Source: Ktedonobacteraceae bacterium (lineage in GTDB: Bacteria; Chloroflexota; Ktedonobacteria; Ktedonobacterales; Ktedonobacteraceae). Taken from it: DNA of 64,000 nucleotides. Location: positions 725-64,724 of the forward strand of contig DATJHM010000048.1 in assembly GCA_035493895.1 (NCBI GenBank), given 5' to 3'. The notes below the pieces were generated by a model. It saw only the letters and a program-made list of their open reading frames with translations. It had not been told where the DNA came from and ran no database searches. The translations under genes were made by a program, and so were the position numbers. Below are positions 2,526 to 10,068 of the stretch, piece by piece. The stretch's first letter is position 1, and each line of letters opens with the position of its first letter.

Positions 2526-4487
2526 ATGCCCGATGAGATAGTATCACCGGCTCTTTTCACGGAAGCCGCCAACATGGATACGTTCCCGGCGCGGCTCACT
2601 GCTCTGGCGCGTTTTGCTGCCCTCCAACCCCTGATCGCGGCGAACCCGGCAACGCCGCCCACAACCTTAGAGCAGCTCAGTACGTCCACCGATCCTGGCA
2701 TACGGCGCGCAGTGGCTCAGAATCCCAATGCATCCGTACAGACGTTGTGCCGTCTGGCAGGCGAATTTCCCCAGGAATTTTTGCACAATCCCATTATTCC
2801 CCTCCTGAGCATGACCCGGCCTGCCTTTGTCAAAGATCTTCCTCTCCTTTCCTGGGCAAGCCTGCTCAGATTCGAAAATCTCTCTCGCTCGTGGCTGCAA
2901 CAAATCGTGACGGATAAGAGCTATGAGCGCAATCGGTCTCCTATCTTGCGGCTGGTGCAGTTGCATGTGACCCAGGCAGGCAAAAAGCCCGAAGCATGGC
3001 GATTTGAGGCGACGCACGCGTTGCGGGCATATCGACAAATAGGGAAGTTTCAGCAAACGGTGGGATATCAACCAAAAGCTACTCCCCTTGCTTCCATTCA
3101 TCAACAGGCTGAGATAGATATATTTCTCTTGTTGGCTCTGCTGTGCCCTCAATGTGCCCCGATGTTGAAAGAGCAATGGACCAATGTTGTACACACATCG
3201 CCTGATCGTATCGTGGGCGCGCTATCTTCGTCTCTGGCGATAAGCAGTAAAACGCTGTCTTTGCTCTCGTTTGAACGCAATGTGCCCGTACTCTGCCAGG
3301 TAGCTCGTCATCCGCGCACACCCGCGAATGTTCTGGTGCACCTCGCAGGTCGTCGTCTTTCATGGGAAGTGCGGTGCGCCGTCGCCAGCAATCCGCATAC
3401 TCCATTGGAGAATGTCTATCGGCTGCTGTCTGACAGCAAGCGTGTGGTGCGCCGGGCTGCTGTCTCGCATCCCGCTCTCACGCAACAGGACTACGAAATT
3501 CTTGCTCTCGATCAGGAGACCTCAGTACGTGCTGCTCTTGCCAGAGTGCCCCGGATCGGACTCGATTTGTTGAGCCAGCTGGCCCGTGACCCCGCGCCAG
3601 CCGTACGAGCCGCCGTTGCCCGCAATGTGAAAATCAACGTGGAGACTCTTACCACATTAGCACATGATCCCGAGCCAGTAGTGCGCGCTGCGGCCGCCGC
3701 CAACTCGCGTCTTCCGGGCGAGATACAGAGCATGCTGGCTACCGATCCTGAAGTTGCTGTGCGCGCCGGAGTGAGCGGGAATGCACGTTTACCTGAGTCG
3801 TGCTTTGCCGTGCTCGTGCAAGATCCCTCGCCGCTCGTGCGTAAACAGCTCGCCGCCAATTCGCGCCTGCCCGTCCAGCATCTCGAAACACTCTGGCGAA
3901 CGGGCAATGCGGAGGTCTGGCAGGGGGTCGCACGCCATCCTCAGACCGCTCCAGAACTGCTGACACAACTGGCGCAACAGGGCGATGCACGTGTGCGCGC
4001 AGCCGTTGCCGCTCACAGGCAGACGCCGCTCGAAGTGCTCTATGCCCTGGAGCAGGAAAATGTACGCGAGATCTGGCAGGGTCTGGCTATGAACCCGAAC
4101 GCGCCGCTTGACATCCTGGAACGTGCGCTTGCTACACCGTATACCGATCTCTGGTATCGCCTCTTCAACCATCCGACGATGCTGCGCAATCAGCGTCGTC
4201 CCTATCTCACGCTGCTCGCGAGCAAGCTCCAGCAACTTATGGTTGCAAACAGCTTTCCGAACTGGCTGCGAAAAGTCGTATTCCAATATTACACCTCATT
4301 TCCCGCAACCATCATGGAGCCGTTTGCTAGCTCTCCTCACTGGGAAGAGCGCTACCTTGCAGCTCGCCATCCGCAAATAGCAGAATCGCTCCTTGATACA
4401 CTTGCTCACGATGGCATCTGTTATGTCCAGGCCGGTGCACAGGACGCATTGCAACAGCGCAAACTCTCTCATAATCTGAAGCATTGA
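2526..4487 (+). CDS. leucine-rich-repeat-variant (LRV) / HEAT-like repeat protein
   Basis: 653 aa with many roughly 24-aa repeats of the form LAxDPxPxVRxAVAxNxxxP (for example LARDPAPAVRAAVARNV, LAHDPEPVVRAAAAANSRLP, LATDPEVAVRAGVSGNARLP). ATG at 2526. The TGA stop lies inside the next cassette's -35. Confidence 0.8.
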   Translation: MPDEIVSPALFTEAANMDTFPARLTALARFAALQPLIAANPATPPTTLEQLSTSTDPGIRRAVAQNPNASVQTLCRLAGEFPQEFLHNPIIPLLSMTRPAFVKDLPLLSWASLLRFENLSRSWLQQIVTDKSYERNRSPILRLVQLHVTQAGKKPEAWRFEATHALRAYRQIGKFQQTVGYQPKATPLASIHQQAEIDIFLLLALLCPQCAPMLKEQWTNVVHTSPDRIVGALSSSLAISSKTLSLLSFERNVPVLCQVARHPRTPANVLVHLAGRRLSWEVRCAVASNPHTPLENVYRLLSDSKRVVRRAAVSHPALTQQDYEILALDQETSVRAALARVPRIGLDLLSQLARDPAPAVRAAVARNVKINVETLTTLAHDPEPVVRAAAAANSRLPGEIQSMLATDPEVAVRAGVSGNARLPESCFAVLVQDPSPLVRKQLAANSRLPVQHLETLWRTGNAEVWQGVARHPQTAPELLTQLAQQGDARVRAAVAAHRQTPLEVLYALEQENVREIWQGLAMNPNAPLDILERALATPYTDLWYRLFNHPTMLRNQRRPYLTLLASKLQQLMVANSFPNWLRKVVFQYYTSFPATIMEPFASSPHWEERYLAARHPQIAESLLDTLAHDGICYVQAGAQDALQQRKLSHNLKH

Positions 4488-4534
4488 CAGCGAATGTGCT
4501 CTCGATTATAGTAATGCCATCGACTTTGTTCGAT
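4484..4534 (+). promoter_or_regulatory. Cassette 2 promoter plus 5' leader hairpin
   Basis: TTGACA (4484-4489, overlapping the stop codon at 4485-4487), a 17-nt spacer, TATAGT (4507-4512) and the hairpin ATCGA-CTTTGT-TCGAT (4519-4534). Confidence 0.65.
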
Positions 4535-4538
4535 CGGT

Positions 4539-4611
4539 GCGGGTGTAGCTCAGATGGTAGAGCATTGGTTGGCTAAACCGAAGATTGCAGGTTCGAGTCC
4601 TGCCCACTCTG
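4539..4611 (+). ncRNA. tRNA-like module 1 of cassette 2 (GCU in anticodon position, short variable loop, no U33)
   Basis: D arm TAGCTCAGATGGTAGAGC, anticodon arm TTGGT-TGGCTAA-ACCGA and T arm GCAGG-TTCGAGT-CCTGC. The acceptor region pairs only as a bulged extended helix (GGTGCGGGTG with CACTC-T-GCGC). Confidence 0.5.
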
Positions 4612-4620
4612 CGCTGTTGT

Positions 4621-4692
4621 GGGGGCGTGGTGCAGCGGCAGCATCGTGCACGCAAAGCACGGGAGGCCGGGTTCGATCCCCGGTCGCCTCCA
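4621..4692 (+). tRNA. tRNA-like module 2 of cassette 2 (Ala-type acceptor, GCA in anticodon position, 7-nt loop ACGCAAA)
   Basis: This is the only copy with a 5-bp anticodon stem (CGTGC/GCACG) and a 7-nt loop. Position 33 is C, not U. Acceptor GGGGGCG/CGCCTCC plus A73, and T arm GCCGGG-TTCGATC-CCCGGT. Confidence 0.55.
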
Positions 4693-4727
4693 CATTCTTC
4701 CTATTCTCCCCCTTTTTTTGCCCCGTT

Positions 4728-4757
4728 TTGGGATAGAGACGTTCGTTTTGGTATGAT
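4728..4757 (+). promoter_or_regulatory. Possible secondary promoter upstream of the kinase gene
   Basis: TTGGGA (4728-4733), an 18-nt spacer and TGG-TATGAT (extended -10, 4749-4757). Confidence 0.3.
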
Positions 4758-4933
4758 AGAGATGGGTCTCAGAGGGACTTTTTCGTCTCTCGCCCGTATA
4801 TCATAAAGATGACCTATCGTTGGCTCGATAGTGTGCACATTCAACCCCGCAACAATACGTATGCTCTTTCCGTTTGTTCGCTGTTGCTGAAAATGGAAAG
4901 AGGAATGGCAAAAAATCTCTGGAGAGGCTGCAT

Positions 4934-6952
4934 ATGGTTGATTACATAGGACGACAGCTTGGCAATTATCGCCTTACCCGTCTTTTAGGCAAAGGCAGTT
5001 TTGCGCAGGTCTATCTTGGGGAGCATATCTATCTTGGTACTCCGGCGGCGATGAAGGTGCTCAGCACGCAGATGGCGGACGATCTGGATGTGTTTCGCAC
5101 AGAAGCTCGTACTATCGCTCGTCTGATTCATCCCAATATTGTGCGCGTGCTGGAATTTGGCGTGGAAGGCACCATTCCGTTTCTGGTGCTGGACTATGCG
5201 CCCAATGGAACGCTTCGTCAGTACTACCCCAAAGGCGTGCCTCTCCCCTTGCCAACGGTGGTCTCCTATGTGAAACAGATCGCTGAGGCATTAGCGTATG
5301 CCCACGGTGAAAAGTTGATTCACCGGGATGTGAAGCCGGAAAATATCCTCCTGGGAAGAAATAACGAGTTGCTTCTGAGCGACTTTGGGATCGCTCTGAT
5401 GGCGCAGACGATGCACGATCAGAATATGCAGAATGTGGCGGGTACGCTGGCCTATATGGCCCCTGAACAAATCCAGGGCAATCCGCGTCAGGCCAGCGAT
5501 CAGTATTCATTGGGCATCATTGTCTATGAGTGGCTGACTGGCGAACGTCCCTTCAATGGCTCGTTCAACGAGATAATCTCGCAGCAGCTCTCTGTTCTCC
5601 CTCGTCCCTTGCGCGCAAAGGTTCCGACGATTGCCCCGGCCGTTGAACAGGTGGTGTTGATGGCCCTGGAGAAGAATCCTGATCGACGCTTTAACAACAT
5701 CCGCGCATTTGCCTTTGCCCTGGAGCTGGCGAGCCAGCTCAATGCGTCTGCCTCTGACGTCGCCGGTAAGCCTGCCGGAGTTGGCGAGATCTCCCCCTCC
5801 TTCAGCAAGCCCCAGGGCGATGAAAGAGCCGCGATTGCGCCGACGATTCTCCCATCTCCAGCGCCTGTATCGCCAGCAAACAATGCCGCGCCTCCGACGA
5901 TCCTTCCACCCCCTGAACTCCTATCGCCAGCGAAAAGTGAAGGCCCTGTTGTGCGCCCTGTCGCACCCCCGCCATCAGTACCCACGCCGCAAACAAAACC
6001 CGCGGGAACGCTCGTCTCCAGTTATCAGGGACATCCGAACGAAGTATGTTCTTTATCGTGGTTCTCCGGTGGCGTGCGCATTGTGTCGGTAAGCAATGAT
6101 AAAAGTGTGCATGTCTGGGATGCTATGACGGGCAAGCAGTTCCAGATCTACCAGGATATCGCTGATGCCGTGGGTGTCATCGCAGGCTCACCTGATGGCT
6201 CACGTATTGCCACTGCCGGATCTGATGCCCAGGTGCGGATCTGGGATTTTGCCACGAATCGTCTGGTAACCACATATCGTGGTCATGTCGGAAGCACCAT
6301 TAACGCAATCGCCTGGTCGCCAACGCAGCAGCAGCTCGCTTCCGCCGCTGCTGACGGCACCGTACACGTCTGGGATGCGACGACGGGGCAGACGCTCACC
6401 ATCTATCGTGGTCATACCGGCAGCGTCAATATGCTGGCGTGGTCGCCCGATGATCCTTCGTCGGCGCGTATCGTTTCCGGTGGCGACGATGCGTCAGTGC
6501 AGACCTGGAATGCCTCCACTGGCAGAAGTATTGCGCTCCACCGCAGCCAGGGGGCGAAGGTCATGAGTGTCGCATGGTCGCCGGAGGTATATCCCATGTC
6601 TCTCCAGACGAGCTACTCGGCAAGCATGCCCACGAAGGTTCCCAATAGTGCCCGGGTCGCGTGCGGGAGAGCAGACGGAACGGTACAGATGTGGGATACC
6701 ACCACAGATCGCGAAGTATTAAGCTACCGCTACAATGCCCCTCTCTCCGTCGTCGCATGGTCGCCGGATGGGAGGCGTTTCGCCTATGCCAGCGAAAACA
6801 AGACAGTAGAGGTGTGGGACACCATGACGAATCTCAAACTGGTAACCTTCTCCCATGCCGCTCCAACCCGCGTCATGGCCTGGTCCCCCGACGGAAAATA
6901 CATTGCCTCTGGCGGTGGCGATGCAACGATACAAGTCTGGGTTGCCCCATAA
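4934..6952 (+). CDS. Ser/Thr protein kinase with C-terminal WD40 beta-propeller
   Basis: Kinase motifs GKGSFAQV, HRDVKPENILL, DFGIA and APE. A Pro-rich linker is followed by at least 7 WD repeats (VHVWDA, VRIWDF, VQTWNA, VQMWDT, VEVWDT, IQVWV). The ATG at 4934 is preceded by GGAGAGG. The ORF track's TTG at 4874 is less likely. Confidence 0.9.
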   Translation: MVDYIGRQLGNYRLTRLLGKGSFAQVYLGEHIYLGTPAAMKVLSTQMADDLDVFRTEARTIARLIHPNIVRVLEFGVEGTIPFLVLDYAPNGTLRQYYPKGVPLPLPTVVSYVKQIAEALAYAHGEKLIHRDVKPENILLGRNNELLLSDFGIALMAQTMHDQNMQNVAGTLAYMAPEQIQGNPRQASDQYSLGIIVYEWLTGERPFNGSFNEIISQQLSVLPRPLRAKVPTIAPAVEQVVLMALEKNPDRRFNNIRAFAFALELASQLNASASDVAGKPAGVGEISPSFSKPQGDERAAIAPTILPSPAPVSPANNAAPPTILPPPELLSPAKSEGPVVRPVAPPPSVPTPQTKPAGTLVSSYQGHPNEVCSLSWFSGGVRIVSVSNDKSVHVWDAMTGKQFQIYQDIADAVGVIAGSPDGSRIATAGSDAQVRIWDFATNRLVTTYRGHVGSTINAIAWSPTQQQLASAAADGTVHVWDATTGQTLTIYRGHTGSVNMLAWSPDDPSSARIVSGGDDASVQTWNASTGRSIALHRSQGAKVMSVAWSPEVYPMSLQTSYSASMPTKVPNSARVACGRADGTVQMWDTTTDREVLSYRYNAPLSVVAWSPDGRRFAYASENKTVEVWDTMTNLKLVTFSHAAPTRVMAWSPDGKYIASGGGDATIQVWVAP

Positions 6953-6962
6953 GCGCTCATCA

Positions 6963-6996
6963 GTAGGGACGCCATGGAGGCACGGAATGGCGTCCG
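6963..6996. repeat. REP-like element, family a (GTAG head plus hairpin GGACGCCAT...ATGGCGTCC)
   Basis: The 36-mer CAGTAGGGACGCCATGGAGGCACGGAATGGCGTCCG is repeated identically at 27910-27945 and 28686-28721. This copy sits 10 nt after the kinase stop and may double as a terminator. Confidence 0.75.
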
Positions 6997-7079
6997 GGTA
7001 GCCAACGAATTCTCAGGCACCGAAGACGAGAGCAGCAACAAAAAACCAGCCGAATCGCAGCCCAGAAGCCCAATGAGCA

Positions 7080-7130
7080 TTGACAATAAATCTAAACTCA
7101 ACTATATTGCATACATCGGATTCGTTCGAT
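7080..7130 (+). promoter_or_regulatory. Cassette 3 promoter plus 5' leader hairpin
   Basis: TTGACA (7080-7085), a 17-nt spacer, TATATT (7103-7108) and the hairpin ATCGGA-TTCG-TTCGAT (7115-7130). Confidence 0.7.
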
Positions 7131-7134
7131 CGGC

Positions 7135-7208
7135 GCAGGTGTAGCGTAGTGGCCTAACGCAGCTGTATATCCCGCAGGAGATCTCAGGTTCGAATCCTGT
7201 CGCCTGTG
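7135..7208 (+). ncRNA. tRNA-like module 1 of cassette 3 (AUC in anticodon position)
   Basis: Acceptor GCAGGTG/CGCCTGT (two G-U pairs), extended to 11 bp with leader and trailer. D arm GCGT-AGTGGCCTA-ACGC, anticodon loop ATATCCC and T arm (T)CAGG-TTCGAAT-CCTG(T). Confidence 0.5.
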
Positions 7209-7217
7209 TCGCATAGT

Positions 7218-7291
7218 GGGGGCGTGGTGCAGCGTCAACACAGTACATCCAATTGGTACATGACGCCGGGTTCAACTCCCGGTCGCCTCCA
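7218..7291 (+). ncRNA. tRNA-like module 2 of cassette 3 (Ala-type acceptor, 9-nt loop ATCCAATTG)
   Basis: Invariant GGGGGCGTGGTGCAGCG ... CGCCTCCA. Anticodon stem GTAC/GTAC and T arm GCCGGG-TTCAACT-CCCGGT. Confidence 0.55.
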
Positions 7292-7344
7292 CAGTTCATC
7301 CATTGCAAAACTCTCCTCATCGCAGCCCAGAAGCACAACAAGCA

Positions 7345-7395
7345 TTGACAATAAATCTAAACTCAACTATATTGCATACATCGGATTCGTCCGAT
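7345..7395 (+). promoter_or_regulatory. Cassette 4 promoter plus 5' leader hairpin
   Basis: TTGACA (7345-7350), a 17-nt spacer, TATATT (7368-7373) and the hairpin ATCGGA-TTCG-TCCGAT (7380-7395). Confidence 0.7.
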
Positions 7396-7399
7396 CAGC

Positions 7400-7472
7400 A
7401 CAGGAGTAGCGTAGATGGTAGCGCGTCTGCTTTGCACGCAGAAGGTCGCAGGTTCGAGTCCTGTCTCTTCGT
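7400..7472 (+). tRNA. tRNA-like module 1 of cassette 4 (Ala-type UGC anticodon arm, non-canonical acceptor)
   Basis: The anticodon arm TCTGC-TTTGCAC-GCAGA is identical to bacterial tRNA-Ala(UGC). D arm GCGT-AGATGGTA-GCGC and T arm GCAGG-TTCGAGT-CCTGT. The acceptor ACAGGAG / CTCTT-C-GT pairs only with a bulged C and continues 4 more bp. Confidence 0.55.
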
Positions 7473-7481
7473 GCTGTCAGT

Positions 7482-7554
7482 GGGGGCGTGGTGCAGCGTG
7501 AGCATCGTGCAGCCAAAAGCACAGGACATCAGGTTCAACTCCTGGTCGCCTCCA
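7482..7554 (+). ncRNA. tRNA-like module 2 of cassette 4 (Ala-type acceptor, 8-nt loop AGCCAAAA)
   Basis: Invariant GGGGGCGTGGTGCAGCG ... CGCCTCCA. Anticodon stem GTGC/GCAC and T arm ATCAGG-TTCAACT-CCTGGT. Confidence 0.55.
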
Positions 7555-7607
7555 CACTTCATCCACCGCAAAACTCCCCTCGTGCCACCTCAGAAGCGCA
7601 ATGAGCA

Positions 7608-7658
7608 TTGACAACGCTTTTCCCCTCAACTATATTACATGCATCGACTTTGTTCGAT
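7608..7658 (+). promoter_or_regulatory. Cassette 5 promoter plus 5' leader hairpin
   Basis: TTGACA (7608-7613), a 17-nt spacer, TATATT (7631-7636) and the hairpin ATCGA-CTTTGT-TCGAT (7643-7658). Confidence 0.7.
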
Positions 7659-7662
7659 CGGC

Positions 7663-7736
7663 GTGGGAGTAGCTCGGGTGCTAGAGCGCCTCCTTGCCAA
7701 GGAGAGAGGTCGCAGGTTCGAGCCCTGCACACTCAA
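7663..7736 (+). tRNA. tRNA-like module 1 of cassette 5 (Gly-type GCC anticodon arm, degenerate acceptor)
   Basis: The anticodon loop TTGCCAA is identical to bacterial tRNA-Gly(GCC). D arm GCTC-GGGTGCTA-GAGC and T arm GCAGG-TTCGAGC-CCTGC. The 5' GTGGGAG pairs with the trailer only through an internal loop. Confidence 0.5.
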
Positions 7737-7745
7737 CGTCGTCGT

Positions 7746-7818
7746 GGGGGCGTGGTGCAGCGAAAGCATAGTACGCTCATTAGTACAGGACATCAGGTTC
7801 AACTCCTGGTCGCCTCCA
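7746..7818 (+). ncRNA. tRNA-like module 2 of cassette 5 (Ala-type acceptor, 8-nt loop GCTCATTA)
   Basis: Invariant GGGGGCGTGGTGCAGCG ... CGCCTCCA. Anticodon stem GTAC/GTAC and T arm ATCAGG-TTCAACT-CCTGGT. Confidence 0.55.
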
Positions 7819-7916
7819 CATTCACCCGAATATCTTATGGCCATTTATCCCCGCATTCTTGCCAGACCGATCTTGCAGAGATTTCAGCCAATAAAAAAAG
7901 AATTGAGTGGACTATC

Positions 7917-8951
7917 ATGACGCCAGAAGCTCTCTCAAGTTTTTTGCATAAGCTCGTCGAACATCGTCTGATGTTCAGTACTATGATCTGGGGCGCGCCG
8001 GGCATCGGCAAATCGAGCATTGTCGCGCAGACTGCGGCTGCCTACGAGATGGAGATGATCGATCTTCGCCTCTCACAACTGGCCCCGACGGATCTGCGCG
8101 GCTTGCCCGTGGCTGACAATGGTGTCTCGCGCTGGTATCCGCCCGAATTTTTGCCGCGTGAAGGCAAGGGCATTCTCTTTCTCGACGAATTGAATCTCGC
8201 TCCTCCCGCGATGCAGGGGATGGCGCAACAGTTGATTCTGGATCGCCGCGTCGGGAACTATACGGTTCCCCGGGATTGGTTTGTCTGGGCCGCAGGCAAT
8301 CGCAAAGAAGATCGTGCCGCCGTGTTCGACATGCCCGCGCCACTCGCCAACCGCTTCATCCATCTCACGGTCGAGGCGCACTTTGACAGCTTCAAATCCT
8401 ACGCCCTCGGACAGCACATTCACGAGCACATCCTGGCGTTTCTCTCTTTCCGTCCCGCATTGCTACATAAGCTCGATCCACAGCAGCCTGCCTGGCCTTC
8501 GCCTCGCTCGTGGATGATTGCCAATCGTCTATACAAAGTGGGCCTGGATATCTCGCATGTGGTCGGCCAGGGCGTTGCCGCAGAGTTTGCCGCTTTTCTC
8601 AAGCTCTATCAACAGTTGCCCAATGTCACTGAGATTTTGCAGGGAAACGGCGACAAGATTGGCTTCCCCGATGAGCCATCGCAGCGTTACGCCCTGACCG
8701 TTGCTCTGACTATGCGCGCCACTTCTCTGCAAGAAAGCTATCTGGCATTTCAATGGATGGCTGCGCATGCCGGACACGAATGGATACAGCTCTTTGCTAC
8801 CGATCTCTTCCGTCAGGCTCGCGCACGCAACGAACTGGGACGTCTGGCGACACTGGTGCAGCGCGATAAACGCTTACAGCAAATGTTCATTGAATACATG
8901 AAGTTGCTGGAGGAGCCCGACGCGTTGGAGGAAGCCGATGAGCAAGAATGA
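7917..8951 (+). CDS. MoxR-like AAA+ ATPase (AAA_5 type)
   Basis: Walker A GAPGIGKS, Walker B ILFLDELN, and AAGNRKEDRAAVFDMPAPLANRF. The likely start is the ATG at 7917 (MTPEALSS...). The ORF-track start at 7608 reads through cassette 5 and is rejected. Confidence 0.85.
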   Translation: MTPEALSSFLHKLVEHRLMFSTMIWGAPGIGKSSIVAQTAAAYEMEMIDLRLSQLAPTDLRGLPVADNGVSRWYPPEFLPREGKGILFLDELNLAPPAMQGMAQQLILDRRVGNYTVPRDWFVWAAGNRKEDRAAVFDMPAPLANRFIHLTVEAHFDSFKSYALGQHIHEHILAFLSFRPALLHKLDPQQPAWPSPRSWMIANRLYKVGLDISHVVGQGVAAEFAAFLKLYQQLPNVTEILQGNGDKIGFPDEPSQRYALTVALTMRATSLQESYLAFQWMAAHAGHEWIQLFATDLFRQARARNELGRLATLVQRDKRLQQMFIEYMKLLEEPDALEEADEQE

Positions 8952-10068
8952 TGCTTTTCAGCGCCAGATTTCCGCCGCGATCATTCAGTTGCGCCTGCAT
9001 TCGCCGTTCTTTGCAACGCTCGCGCTGTTCGCCAGGATTATTCCCACGCAAAACTATCCCACGGCGGCAACCGATGGACGCGATGTCTTTATCAATCCAG
9101 ATTTCTGGCGCGACCTGACGACCGCTGAGCGCCTGGGCTTGCTCGCTCACGAAGTACTGCACGCCGCGCTCCTCCACGTGCCGCGCCTGGGCCGACGCCA
9201 TCCCTTAACCTGGAATATTGCAGCCGATATTGTGGTCAATGGCATCATTCTTGCTCAGGATGGTTTTGCGCTGCCGAAGGGGCATCTGCGCTATGCGCAG
9301 CTTGAACAACTGAGTGTGGAGGAAATTTATCATCAGATCCAGGCAAATGCCGACGTACGCAAGCTTTTGCTTCCTCTGTTTGCCGATCTGCTGTTGCCCA
9401 CAGAAGGACTCTCTCCCGACCAGTATGCCGAACTTGAGCAGCACTGGAGGCAGGCCTTACGCCAGGCCGAAACGCTGGTCGAAGTGCTGGGACATGGCAC
9501 GCTGCCAGCAGGCTTGCGGCGCGAAATGACCCATCTCAGCCCCTCTCAACTGGATTGGCGAGCCTATCTCTGGCGCTTCCTGGTGCAAACTCCGACCGAT
9601 TTTGAGGGCTTCGATCGTCGCTTTGTGGGTCAGGGACTCTATCTGGACGCGCTCGCGGGGGAGAAACTGCGCGTCTTTGTGGCGGTCGATACCAGCGGCT
9701 CTATTGGCAGTAAAGAGATTGCGCAGTTTCTCGGCGAGGTGCAGGCCATCCTGGGTGCCTATCCACATCTGGAGGCCATCCTCTATTATGCAGATGCTGC
9801 CTGCTATGGTCCCTATGAGCTGACCCCTAACTCAGAGCTTCCCCCTCCGGTGGGTGGCGGCGGCACCGATTTTCGTCCGTTCTTTGCGGCCGTTGAGACG
9901 ACCCTCGATGCTTCGTCTCATGGCATCTGCATCTATCTGACCGATGGCTATGGTACCTTTCCCAGCGTACCACCCTCATTGCCCGTGCTCTGGGTCCTCT
10001 CTCCCGGCGGGATAAGCATCGAATATGTGCCATTTGGGGAAGCGGTACGCCTGATTCCCGACGTGTGA
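8938..10068 (+). CDS. vWA-like domain protein with N-terminal HExxH metallopeptidase-like domain (DUF2201-type partner of MoxR ATPases)
   Basis: HEVLH zinc-binding motif and a MIDAS-like VAVDTSGSI. The start overlaps the ATPase stop by 14 nt, which suggests an operon. Confidence 0.8.
   Translation: MSKNDAFQRQISAAIIQLRLHSPFFATLALFARIIPTQNYPTAATDGRDVFINPDFWRDLTTAERLGLLAHEVLHAALLHVPRLGRRHPLTWNIAADIVVNGIILAQDGFALPKGHLRYAQLEQLSVEEIYHQIQANADVRKLLLPLFADLLLPTEGLSPDQYAELEQHWRQALRQAETLVEVLGHGTLPAGLRREMTHLSPSQLDWRAYLWRFLVQTPTDFEGFDRRFVGQGLYLDALAGEKLRVFVAVDTSGSIGSKEIAQFLGEVQAILGAYPHLEAILYYADAACYGPYELTPNSELPPPVGGGGTDFRPFFAAVETTLDASSHGICIYLTDGYGTFPSVPPSLPVLWVLSPGGISIEYVPFGEAVRLIPDV

Follow-up and report, generated by a model that had tools for sequence, protein, structure and literature searches.

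MoxR-like AAA+ ATPases encoded next to a protein with a VWA (von Willebrand factor A) domain have been described in two settings that come close to the locus discussed here. In jumbo phages such a pair has been proposed to act as a chaperone and co-chaperone with peptidolytic processing (Iyer et al. 2021, Viruses 13:63, PMC7824862), and in the MoxR-VWA ternary conflict systems the two proteins are accompanied by a third component, i.e. VMAP, iSTAND, a beta-propeller, FtsH or TERNS3 (Kaur et al. 2020 eLife, PMC7159879; PMC8195603). Here we describe a stretch of 64,000 nt from a Ktedonobacteraceae bacterium (contig DATJHM010000048.1, positions 725-64,724 of the forward strand; this whole stretch is called the window, and coordinates without a locus name refer to it). 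Between positions 2250 and 10068 it contains a gene for an LRV/HEAT-type solenoid protein, a gene for a MoxR-like ATPase and a gene for a zincin-VWA fusion, interspersed with promoter-bearing, tRNA-like cassettes. An initial annotation of this DNA had listed four co-oriented genes, the fourth one coding for a Ser/Thr kinase fused to WD40 repeats, and all four are present according to the open reading frame (ORF) list and Pfam. The LRV, ATPase and VWA genes form a conserved trio across several phyla. The kinase-WD40 gene, judging from the sequence contexts of its homologues, is a passenger that has come to lie between the LRV and ATPase genes, in a gap flanked by cassettes, and it does not belong to the functional module.

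Conservation was approached from two sides. One cassette was compared with 169 genomes of the class Ktedonobacteria, and the DNA around the matches of its second tRNA-like module (module 2, described below) was then compared; homologues of LRV, ATPase and VWA, and not of the kinase-WD40 protein, lie beside module-2 matches in 11 stretches from 10 genomes. In an independent search the window ATPase protein alone served as query and led to 80 loci. Within the Ktedonobacteria these belong to Dictyobacter, Ktedonobacter racemifer, Ktedonospora, Ktedonosporobacter and strain brp13, and outside the class to Anaerolineales, Chloroflexales, many cyanobacteria, Verrucomicrobia, Hymenobacter, Deinococcus, an actinomycete, a member of the Polyangiaceae and gammaproteobacteria. 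When every ORF in the 80 loci was clustered, the families common to at least 8 lineages were the ATPase (64 loci), the LRV protein (53 loci) and the DUF2201 VWA protein (47 loci); there was no fourth, and the clustering gave no further conserved partner beyond the trio. Counted in the 63 loci with enough flanking DNA, an LRV-family gene is found co-oriented and at most 3.5 kb upstream of the ATPase gene in 43, and a VWA gene at most 2 kb downstream of it in 47, most of the exceptions being Chamaesiphon loci. The expectation that the four genes would be syntenic in related genomes was thus upheld for the order LRV-ATPase-VWA, which recurs in several phyla, but not for the kinase-WD40 gene, which is not syntenic in any other locus. 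Other neighbours of the trio, i.e. pentapeptide, WD40, cobalamin (CbiG/methylase), GGDEF and ParA-like genes, are lineage-local. A CbiG/precorrin-methylase gene, for instance, lies near the trio in some Oscillatoriales (L065:10309-12228, L067:11090-13009, L055 and L056), which is probably local synteny only.

The ATPase (344 aa, 7917-8951, + strand) was delimited with Pfam, a homologue alignment and PHROG 1297. The 447-aa ORF originally listed (7608-8951) is an artefact that reads through the last cassette, and the start was corrected to the ATG at 7917 because all homologues align from there. Pfam assigns the protein to AAA_5 (27.3 bits, cut-off 22 bits), AAA_3 staying under its own cut-off, and both the Walker A (GAPGIGKSS) and the Walker B motif (ILFLDELN) are intact, so the classification as an AAA_5/MoxR ATPase holds. 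Residues 2-316 match positions 10-338 of the 356 positions of the PHROG 1297 profile (1.8e-81), and the nearest sequence relative with a solved structure is a midasin AAA domain. Identity to relatives is 52-90% overall, i.e. 52-86% among the 80 loci, 52-67% between phyla and 73-90% within the class.

The third gene of the trio (376 aa, 8938-10068, + strand) overlaps the ATPase gene by 14 nt and encodes a zincin-like metallopeptidase domain (DUF2201_N, HExxHxxxxH) fused to a VWA domain (DUF2201, MIDAS motif DTSGS), as seen with Pfam (DUF2201_N 1.4e-31, DUF2201 7.4e-15), PHROG 1314 (2.4e-63) and Foldseek; MIDAS stands for metal ion-dependent adhesion site. The zinc motif reads HEVLHAALLH. Its residues H71, H75 and H80 are invariant in 28 homologues and E72 is unchanged in the consensus, and in the MIDAS motif at 251-255 the residues D251, T252, S253 and S255 are likewise invariant in 28 sequences. 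The C-terminal half of the protein has a VWA fold according to Foldseek, the MIDAS domains of MDN1 and Rea1 being among the matches; the VWA domain is C-terminal, and the sole extra domain is the constant N-terminal zincin. Taken together, the catalytic motifs of the trio (Walker A and B, HExxH with the third His, MIDAS) show no variation or are retained in 90% or more of the sequences aligned. The 14-nt overlap, the motifs and the fold agree with what had been claimed for this gene, and the counts given above agree with the view that the MoxR-like ATPase and the HExxH-VWA protein are a coupled pair.

The same pair occurs without the solenoid gene. About 800 phage records carry a homologue of the ATPase as part of an LRV-less pair (PHROG 1297/1314). 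In cyanophage S-TIM5 the ATPase is 47.6% identical to that of the window, and the pair follows an Hsp20 gene, its VWA gene being mis-annotated as an HNH endonuclease. The pair is also found on plasmids, including pSYSA of Synechocystis PCC 6803 (L130, NC_005230.1 26352-28630), where the identity is 59.6% and there is no LRV gene. The neighbours on pSYSA are toxin-antitoxin genes (DUF433/PIN, HepT, DUF1778/GNAT) and a DUF262 gene, with the CyRepA1 replication gene nearby. Phage and window pairs belong to the same families, match over their full length, and share gene order and tight coupling; these sequence features place the window pair in the phage-type MoxR/zincin-VWA family.

The solenoid gene (653 aa, 2526-4487, + strand) was assigned by Pfam, an AlphaFold2 (AF2) model and syntenic homologues. 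The LRV and LRV_2 families score 5.8e-36 and 3.9e-19, respectively, and the AF2 model is an all-alpha solenoid with a mean pLDDT of 91, as one would expect from the LRV/HEAT solenoid named in the initial annotation. Foldseek relates the model to generic HEAT/ARM scaffolds (PP2A-A, importins) with TM-scores of 0.25-0.29. A bpX5 match (1.4e-3), which would link the protein to beta-propeller ternary systems, is below the cut-off and was judged spurious because only 1 of 23 family members shows it; matches to XPC-binding and DUF2336 are repeat-driven. The LRV protein is the fastest-evolving member of the trio, since within the class its homologues are 29-63% identical to the window protein, as compared with 54-83% for VWA and 73-90% for the ATPase. 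In several cyanobacteria LRV paralogues are stacked two to three deep upstream. Family members nevertheless have in common a specific stretch near the N-terminus (motif EFPxEFLxNPxxPLLxLExPxF, about residues 36-133) as well as a C-terminal motif, and both are retained even in the short Chamaesiphon versions. The fast divergence and the stacking of paralogues form a pattern that would be expected of a variable specificity subunit.

A conspicuous feature of the window locus is the series of five cassettes on the + strand, each of which consists of a promoter (TTGACA-N17-TATA(T/G)T), a hairpin in the leader and a pair of tRNA-like modules. Cassette 1 (2250-2462; TTGACA-N17-TATATT, leader hairpin, module 1 at 2305-2377, module 2 at 2385-2462) ends 64 nt before the LRV start. 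Cassette 2 (4484-4694) precedes the kinase gene, and its -35 hexamer contains the LRV stop codon TGA (4485-4487), an arrangement found in three genomes (window, L039 and L122). Cassettes 3, 4 and 5 (7080-7293, 7345-7556 and 7608-7820) are direct tandem copies, with 97 nt between the end of the last one and the ATPase start; a stretch of about 25 nt that lies upstream of the -35 hexamer is repeated before cassettes 3 and 4. The five copies have a mean identity of 75% per alignment column, and no other site in the region gives a better sigma-70 match than their five promoters (11 of 12 positions). ARAGORN and Rfam call tRNA-like elements in them, the Rfam tRNA scores ranging from 31 to 59 bits (top score 58.7) with several copies at 31-42 bits. 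The tRNA family was the only Rfam family found at the cassettes, with no YrlA at the gathering threshold. The statement that the units of this gene string are preceded by tRNA-like cassettes is therefore correct for the LRV, kinase and ATPase genes, the latter with three copies. No cassette was found elsewhere in the 8.05-Mb assembly to which the window belongs.

Across the loci, cassettes were detected with a hidden Markov model of module 2 and with ARAGORN. They are present in 14 of the 16 informative Ktedonobacterial loci that had been found via the ATPase alone, as well as on both contigs found via the VWA protein, but in none of 63 loci outside the class, and Rfam detected no such RNA in eight of the latter. 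The proposed tie between cassettes and module thus applies within the Ktedonobacteria. The general layout is one to four cassettes, the LRV gene, zero to three cassettes, the ATPase gene and the VWA gene. In 20 of the 22 Ktedonobacterial loci that were informative, the cassettes run in the direction of the genes, with 26-117 nt left between their end and the LRV or ATPase start, and none was seen after the VWA gene in these 22. Conversely, approximately 22 of the 26 module-2-type matches in the 169 genomes of the class are at trio loci, while one genome of the same genus as the window (G094) had no cassette match in that search. Stray cassettes away from the trio lie directly downstream of pth (peptidyl-tRNA hydrolase) and upstream of two LacI-family regulators (L029:10587-10737, G150; L034:3853-3924, G149).

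Canonical tRNA genes have a 7-bp acceptor and an anticodon arm that are both regular, as well as an encoded CCA in most cases in this class, and the tRNA-like modules deviate from this. The acceptor helix of module 1 is bulged and extended, the anticodon arms of module 2 are irregular, and neither module encodes CCA; odd anticodons include ATC, and one is undetermined. In 56 module-2 copies there is covariation at the acceptor pairs 5:68 and 6:67; 45 of the copies retain G3:U70, and 32 have A at position 73. The true tRNA genes of the class often have a promoter-like sequence and a leader hairpin as well, but their stems are canonical and most encode CCA; for example, most of the true tRNA-Ala genes examined (L010, L011, L012, L019, L020) end in CCACCA. 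As the structure of the modules is degenerate in comparison to canonical tRNA genes with a similar promoter and hairpin layout, we read the cassettes as degenerate, multiplied tRNA transcription units. Minimum free energy folding of whole leaders was uninformative (z-scores -1.7 and +0.4).

The Ser/Thr kinase-WD40 protein (+ strand, 672 aa at 4934-6952 from the likely ATG at 4934, ORF 4874-6952) is in itself a well-defined protein by Pfam and motifs: Pkinase scores 8.5e-48, WD40 scores 9.3e-47 with 6 scored repeats, and the HRD, DFG and APE motifs are intact. The fusion of a kinase with a WD40 propeller was thus correctly recognized. Its assignment to one module with the other genes was not borne out, as its homologues are found in unrelated contexts and the gap holds unrelated genes elsewhere. 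The start of the gene is 240 nt past cassette 2, and a candidate promoter of its own is found at 4728-4757. No other locus compared has a kinase-WD40 gene between the LRV and ATPase genes; in a near relative of the window (VWA 82% identical), as well as in L127 and L129, the ATPase gene follows directly after the LRV gene. The closest kinase homologues (70% identity, two independent metagenome contigs) lie between a Yip1 gene and a hydrolase gene, the homologue in D. kobayashii is 2.26 Mb away from the trio of that genome, and no cassette adjoins the nearest homologues at any of these sites. Kinases of this kind are very numerous in these genomes, with 5112 matches at E<=1e-60. A strong 9-bp hairpin (GGACGCCAT...ATGGCGTCC) with no T-run lies right after the kinase-WD40 stop codon at 6967-6997.

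The gap between the LRV and ATPase genes is usually empty. It is occupied in 4 of about 19 loci, by a different gene each time, and cassettes stand on both sides of the insert in the window, G108 and L122. Besides the kinase, the inserts are a gene for a GDSL lipase with a ricin lectin (G108 / L040), an IscB-like RRXRR-HNH gene (Ktedonospora formicarum, L024:7732-9105, and L045) and, on the opposite strand and between two cassettes, a TIR_2-domain gene (JGI metagenome contig L122, 7626-8600). The IscB-like gene of K. formicarum (RRXRR 2.1e-67) is located between a cassette and the ATPase gene, and this insert looks like a mobile element using the variable slot.

Some Ktedonobacterial loci depart from the general layout. 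In brp13 (G105, AP024096.1; L022:3133-5010 and L022/L023) there are two complete cassette-LRV-ATPase-VWA modules in the first 36 kb of an 8.88-Mb record, and one trio copy is adjoined by a gene for a ResT/TelK-type telomere resolvase (2.4e-31), which may point to a linear replicon with hairpin ends or to a linear prophage. On a JGI metagenome contig (L121, 1341-2533; ATPase 90% and VWA 83% identical) the LRV gene is lost, DUF6602-SDR fragments are kept, and two cassettes stand directly before the ATPase gene. Locus L030 (G071:C150) has an SDR gene, two LRV paralogues and cassettes, and the ATPase/VWA pair is replaced by an 897-aa MalT-like STAND/LuxR regulator. A fusion gene of about 600 codons for DUF6602, a Zn-ribbon and a split SDR is found immediately upstream of the cassettes, and in the same orientation, in 10 or more Ktedonobacterial trio loci, e.g. 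L021:7215-9104 (G108), L026:5650-7500, L027:7685-9472, L024:12171-14522, L122:1885-3720 and L127:1704-3512; in the genome of the window it is unlinked to the trio, a 72% identical copy being found on another contig (G000:C70:6443-8248). The only similarity of its N-terminal domain in the PDB is a very weak one to the NucC endonuclease (E 0.05), and a guess at a nucleotidyltransferase, made from a motif, found no support there.

How might the parts work together? We consider it reasonably probable that the trio is a conserved ATP-driven module for protein remodelling and processing, with the cassettes as promoters and leaders and the kinase as a passenger. The structural parts of this composite are near-certain, while its biochemical parts are speculative. 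A MoxR-like AAA+ ring would be translationally coupled to a VWA/MIDAS co-factor that bears its own zinc peptidase, and the LRV/HEAT solenoid would be the adaptor or client that sets specificity. By analogy with MoxR-VWA pairs and midasin, we speculate that the MIDAS site takes hold of an acidic motif, either of the solenoid itself or of a protein bound by the solenoid, that the ATPase exerts a pull on the gripped protein and that cleavage is carried out by the zincin domain. In Ktedonobacteria the LRV gene and the ATPase-VWA operon would each be driven by one to four cassettes derived from tRNA units, most likely strong tRNA-type promoters whose 5' leaders may be cleaved off by tRNA-processing enzymes. 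Several points weigh against this picture. About one quarter of the loci outside the Ktedonobacteria have no nearby LRV gene, and the Chamaesiphon loci have a different protein of 420-500 aa after the ATPase that replaces DUF2201. The tandem multiplication, the diversified anticodon arms and the retention of G3:U70 look like selection on the RNAs beyond the plain need for a leader, and the kinase-WD40 gene may still be co-expressed with the module in this genome. Furthermore, we found no functional study of the DUF2201/MoxR and LRV family in the literature, and no paper was found on the LRV partner or on the tRNA-like cassettes; NCBIfam gave no informative match for the trio either.

The signs of selection on the RNAs suggest an alternative, i.e. 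that the tRNA-like RNAs are working partners or substrates, with the HEAT-like solenoid binding alanine-identity mimics, in the manner of Ro60 with Y RNA/YrlA or of exportins with tRNA, and the ATPase and VWA proteins loading, remodelling or releasing them. The concentration of module-2-type matches at trio loci, the multiplication of cassettes up to four times with distinct anticodon arms in each copy, the conservation of G3:U70 while 5:68 and 6:67 covary, the lack of an encoded CCA (unlike the true tRNA genes of the class) and the persistence of cassettes where LRV (L121) or ATPase/VWA (L030) has been lost all fit this idea. However, the RNAs are absent from the 63 non-Ktedonobacterial loci and hence from most trio carriers. 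In the majority of hosts the trio thus operates in their absence, an argument against an RNA partner that is obligatory. In addition, the LRV model resembles generic HEAT scaffolds and not Ro60/TROVE, and a few cassettes adjoin unrelated genes (the LacI regulators and the site downstream of pth), so we hold this alternative to be clearly unlikely. A narrower version, in which the Ktedonobacterial trio became a ribonucleoprotein whose LRV, AAA+ and zincin-VWA proteins bind, remodel or cleave off promoter-driven tRNA mimics, appears quite improbable as well; it would be the equivalent, in bacteria, of Ro60/Y-RNA or exportin/tRNA complexes, driven by a midasin-like motor, and the lineage-specific DUF6602-Zn-ribbon-SDR gene might be a further component. 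At the other extreme, the cassettes could be ordinary tRNA genes and the trio could just happen to sit in a tRNA gene cluster. The better Rfam tRNA scores (up to 58.7 bits), the anticodons assigned by ARAGORN and the promoter, leader hairpin and tRNA layout of several true tRNA genes of the class would agree with that, but the bulged extended acceptor of module 1, the irregular anticodon arms of module 2, the missing CCA, the copies with 31-42 bits and the odd anticodons would not, and a cassette that is unique to this locus in its genome and tracks the trio across genera makes such a coincidence very improbable.

A different question is whether the locus serves in conflict or signalling, both of which had been raised in the initial annotation. 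In an anti-phage or conflict system of the MoxR-VWA ternary type the LRV protein would be the sensor, the peptidase the effector, and the slot would collect defence cargo. We count this reading as compatible with a remodelling module and regard it, as such, as unlikely. The order of third component, MoxR and VWA matches that of the ternary systems (PMC7159879, PMC8195603), the spread is patchy and biased to filamentous bacteria while ATPase identity between phyla stays at the level given above, and the LRV protein evolves fast and has expanded into paralogues. In L122 the slot is taken by a TIR gene, the window has a STAND-NYN gene adjacent to the locus, the pSYSA pair is found among toxin-antitoxin genes, and phages carry the ATPase/VWA pair. 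Nevertheless, PADLOC (PADLOC-DB 2.0) gave 0 families for LRV, ATPase and VWA, and for the kinase only generic kinase-domain matches (PD-T4-6, mad6). The ATPase and VWA proteins are unusually conserved for participants in an arms race, the neighbours across the 80 loci are mostly housekeeping genes that are mutually unrelated, and the slot also takes a secreted lipase-lectin and a transposon-type IscB-like gene. VMAP, iSTAND, bpX and TERNS3 are all absent, and there is no C-terminal effector on the VWA domain. That all four genes including the kinase-WD40 gene make up one signalling module is very improbable. The genes of the window are co-oriented, each with a preceding cassette, and some other loci have a WD40 or kinase gene no more than 8 kb away from the trio, but the absence of a kinase-WD40 gene from every other LRV-to-ATPase gap, the Yip1-hydrolase context of the 70%-identity homologues, the distance in D. 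kobayashii, the promoter-like site of the gene itself 240 nt past the cassette and the sheer number of such kinases mean that the four-gene proposal is already largely refuted by synteny.

Pairs of a MoxR-like ATPase and a zincin-VWA protein have a very wide distribution, being found in hundreds of phages, on plasmids and in many bacterial phyla. The copies encoded in cellular genomes are accompanied by a fast-evolving solenoid protein dedicated to them, and this indicates where specificity resides. Carriers that are in culture and tractable are Dictyobacter and Ktedonobacter racemifer, and for the pair alone Synechocystis PCC 6803 with pSYSA. What is new here is the cassette punctuation, which is specific to the Ktedonobacteria, and the variable slot flanked by cassettes: in the Ktedonobacterial variant each transcription unit of one machine is headed by multiplied, degenerate, promoter-bearing tRNA units that bracket an insertion slot. 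Should the RNAs do more than serve as leaders, the locus would represent an RNA-protein system of a new kind; should they be leaders only, it would still be a clear bacterial case of tRNA-style punctuation of mRNA.

It remains to compare the general features of the Ktedonobacterial locus with those of the described systems. The phage and plasmid pairs lack both the LRV gene and the tRNA-like cassettes, whereas the cellular trio has a dedicated solenoid. The MoxR-VWA ternary systems are similar to the trio in as much as a 5' third component is followed by MoxR and then by VWA, in the bias towards filamentous or multicellular bacteria and in the fast evolution of the third component. However, they carry variable C-terminal effectors, while here the enzymatic domain is N-terminal and the third component is an LRV protein; moreover, the trio ATPase belongs to a different, AAA_5/midasin-like clade. 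The trio thus falls outside the defining features of the ternary systems because the third component differs and the C-terminal effectors are absent. In the classical systems NorQ/NorD, CbbQ/CbbO, CoxD/CoxE, RavA/ViaA and midasin (Rea1/MDN1), an AAA+ ring likewise acts with a MIDAS-bearing VWA domain on a third protein. Here the similarity is at the superfamily level only, no metalloenzyme client gene is linked to the trio, and the VWA protein carries a zincin.

At the level of the RNAs, Ro60/Rsr with Y RNA/YrlA is alike in that a HEAT-type solenoid and a VWA/MIDAS domain are encoded beside tRNA-mimic non-coding RNAs with an extended acceptor-like helix. The difference is that solenoid and VWA domain are separate proteins in the trio and that the RNAs occur in one bacterial class only. 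Kinship with Ro60/TROVE was rejected, as there was no TROVE match by Pfam in 23 family members and no Ro60/TROVE in the top 50 Foldseek matches. Lastly, tRNA structures upstream of a protein gene are found in bacterial tRNA-mRNA co-transcripts such as the thrU-tyrU-glyT-thrT-tufB operon of E. coli. As in these co-transcripts, the upstream tRNA structures of the window would be excised by RNase P together with 3' processing enzymes; they differ in that the tRNA parts are degenerate, have one promoter each, are tandemly multiplied and are specific to one module.

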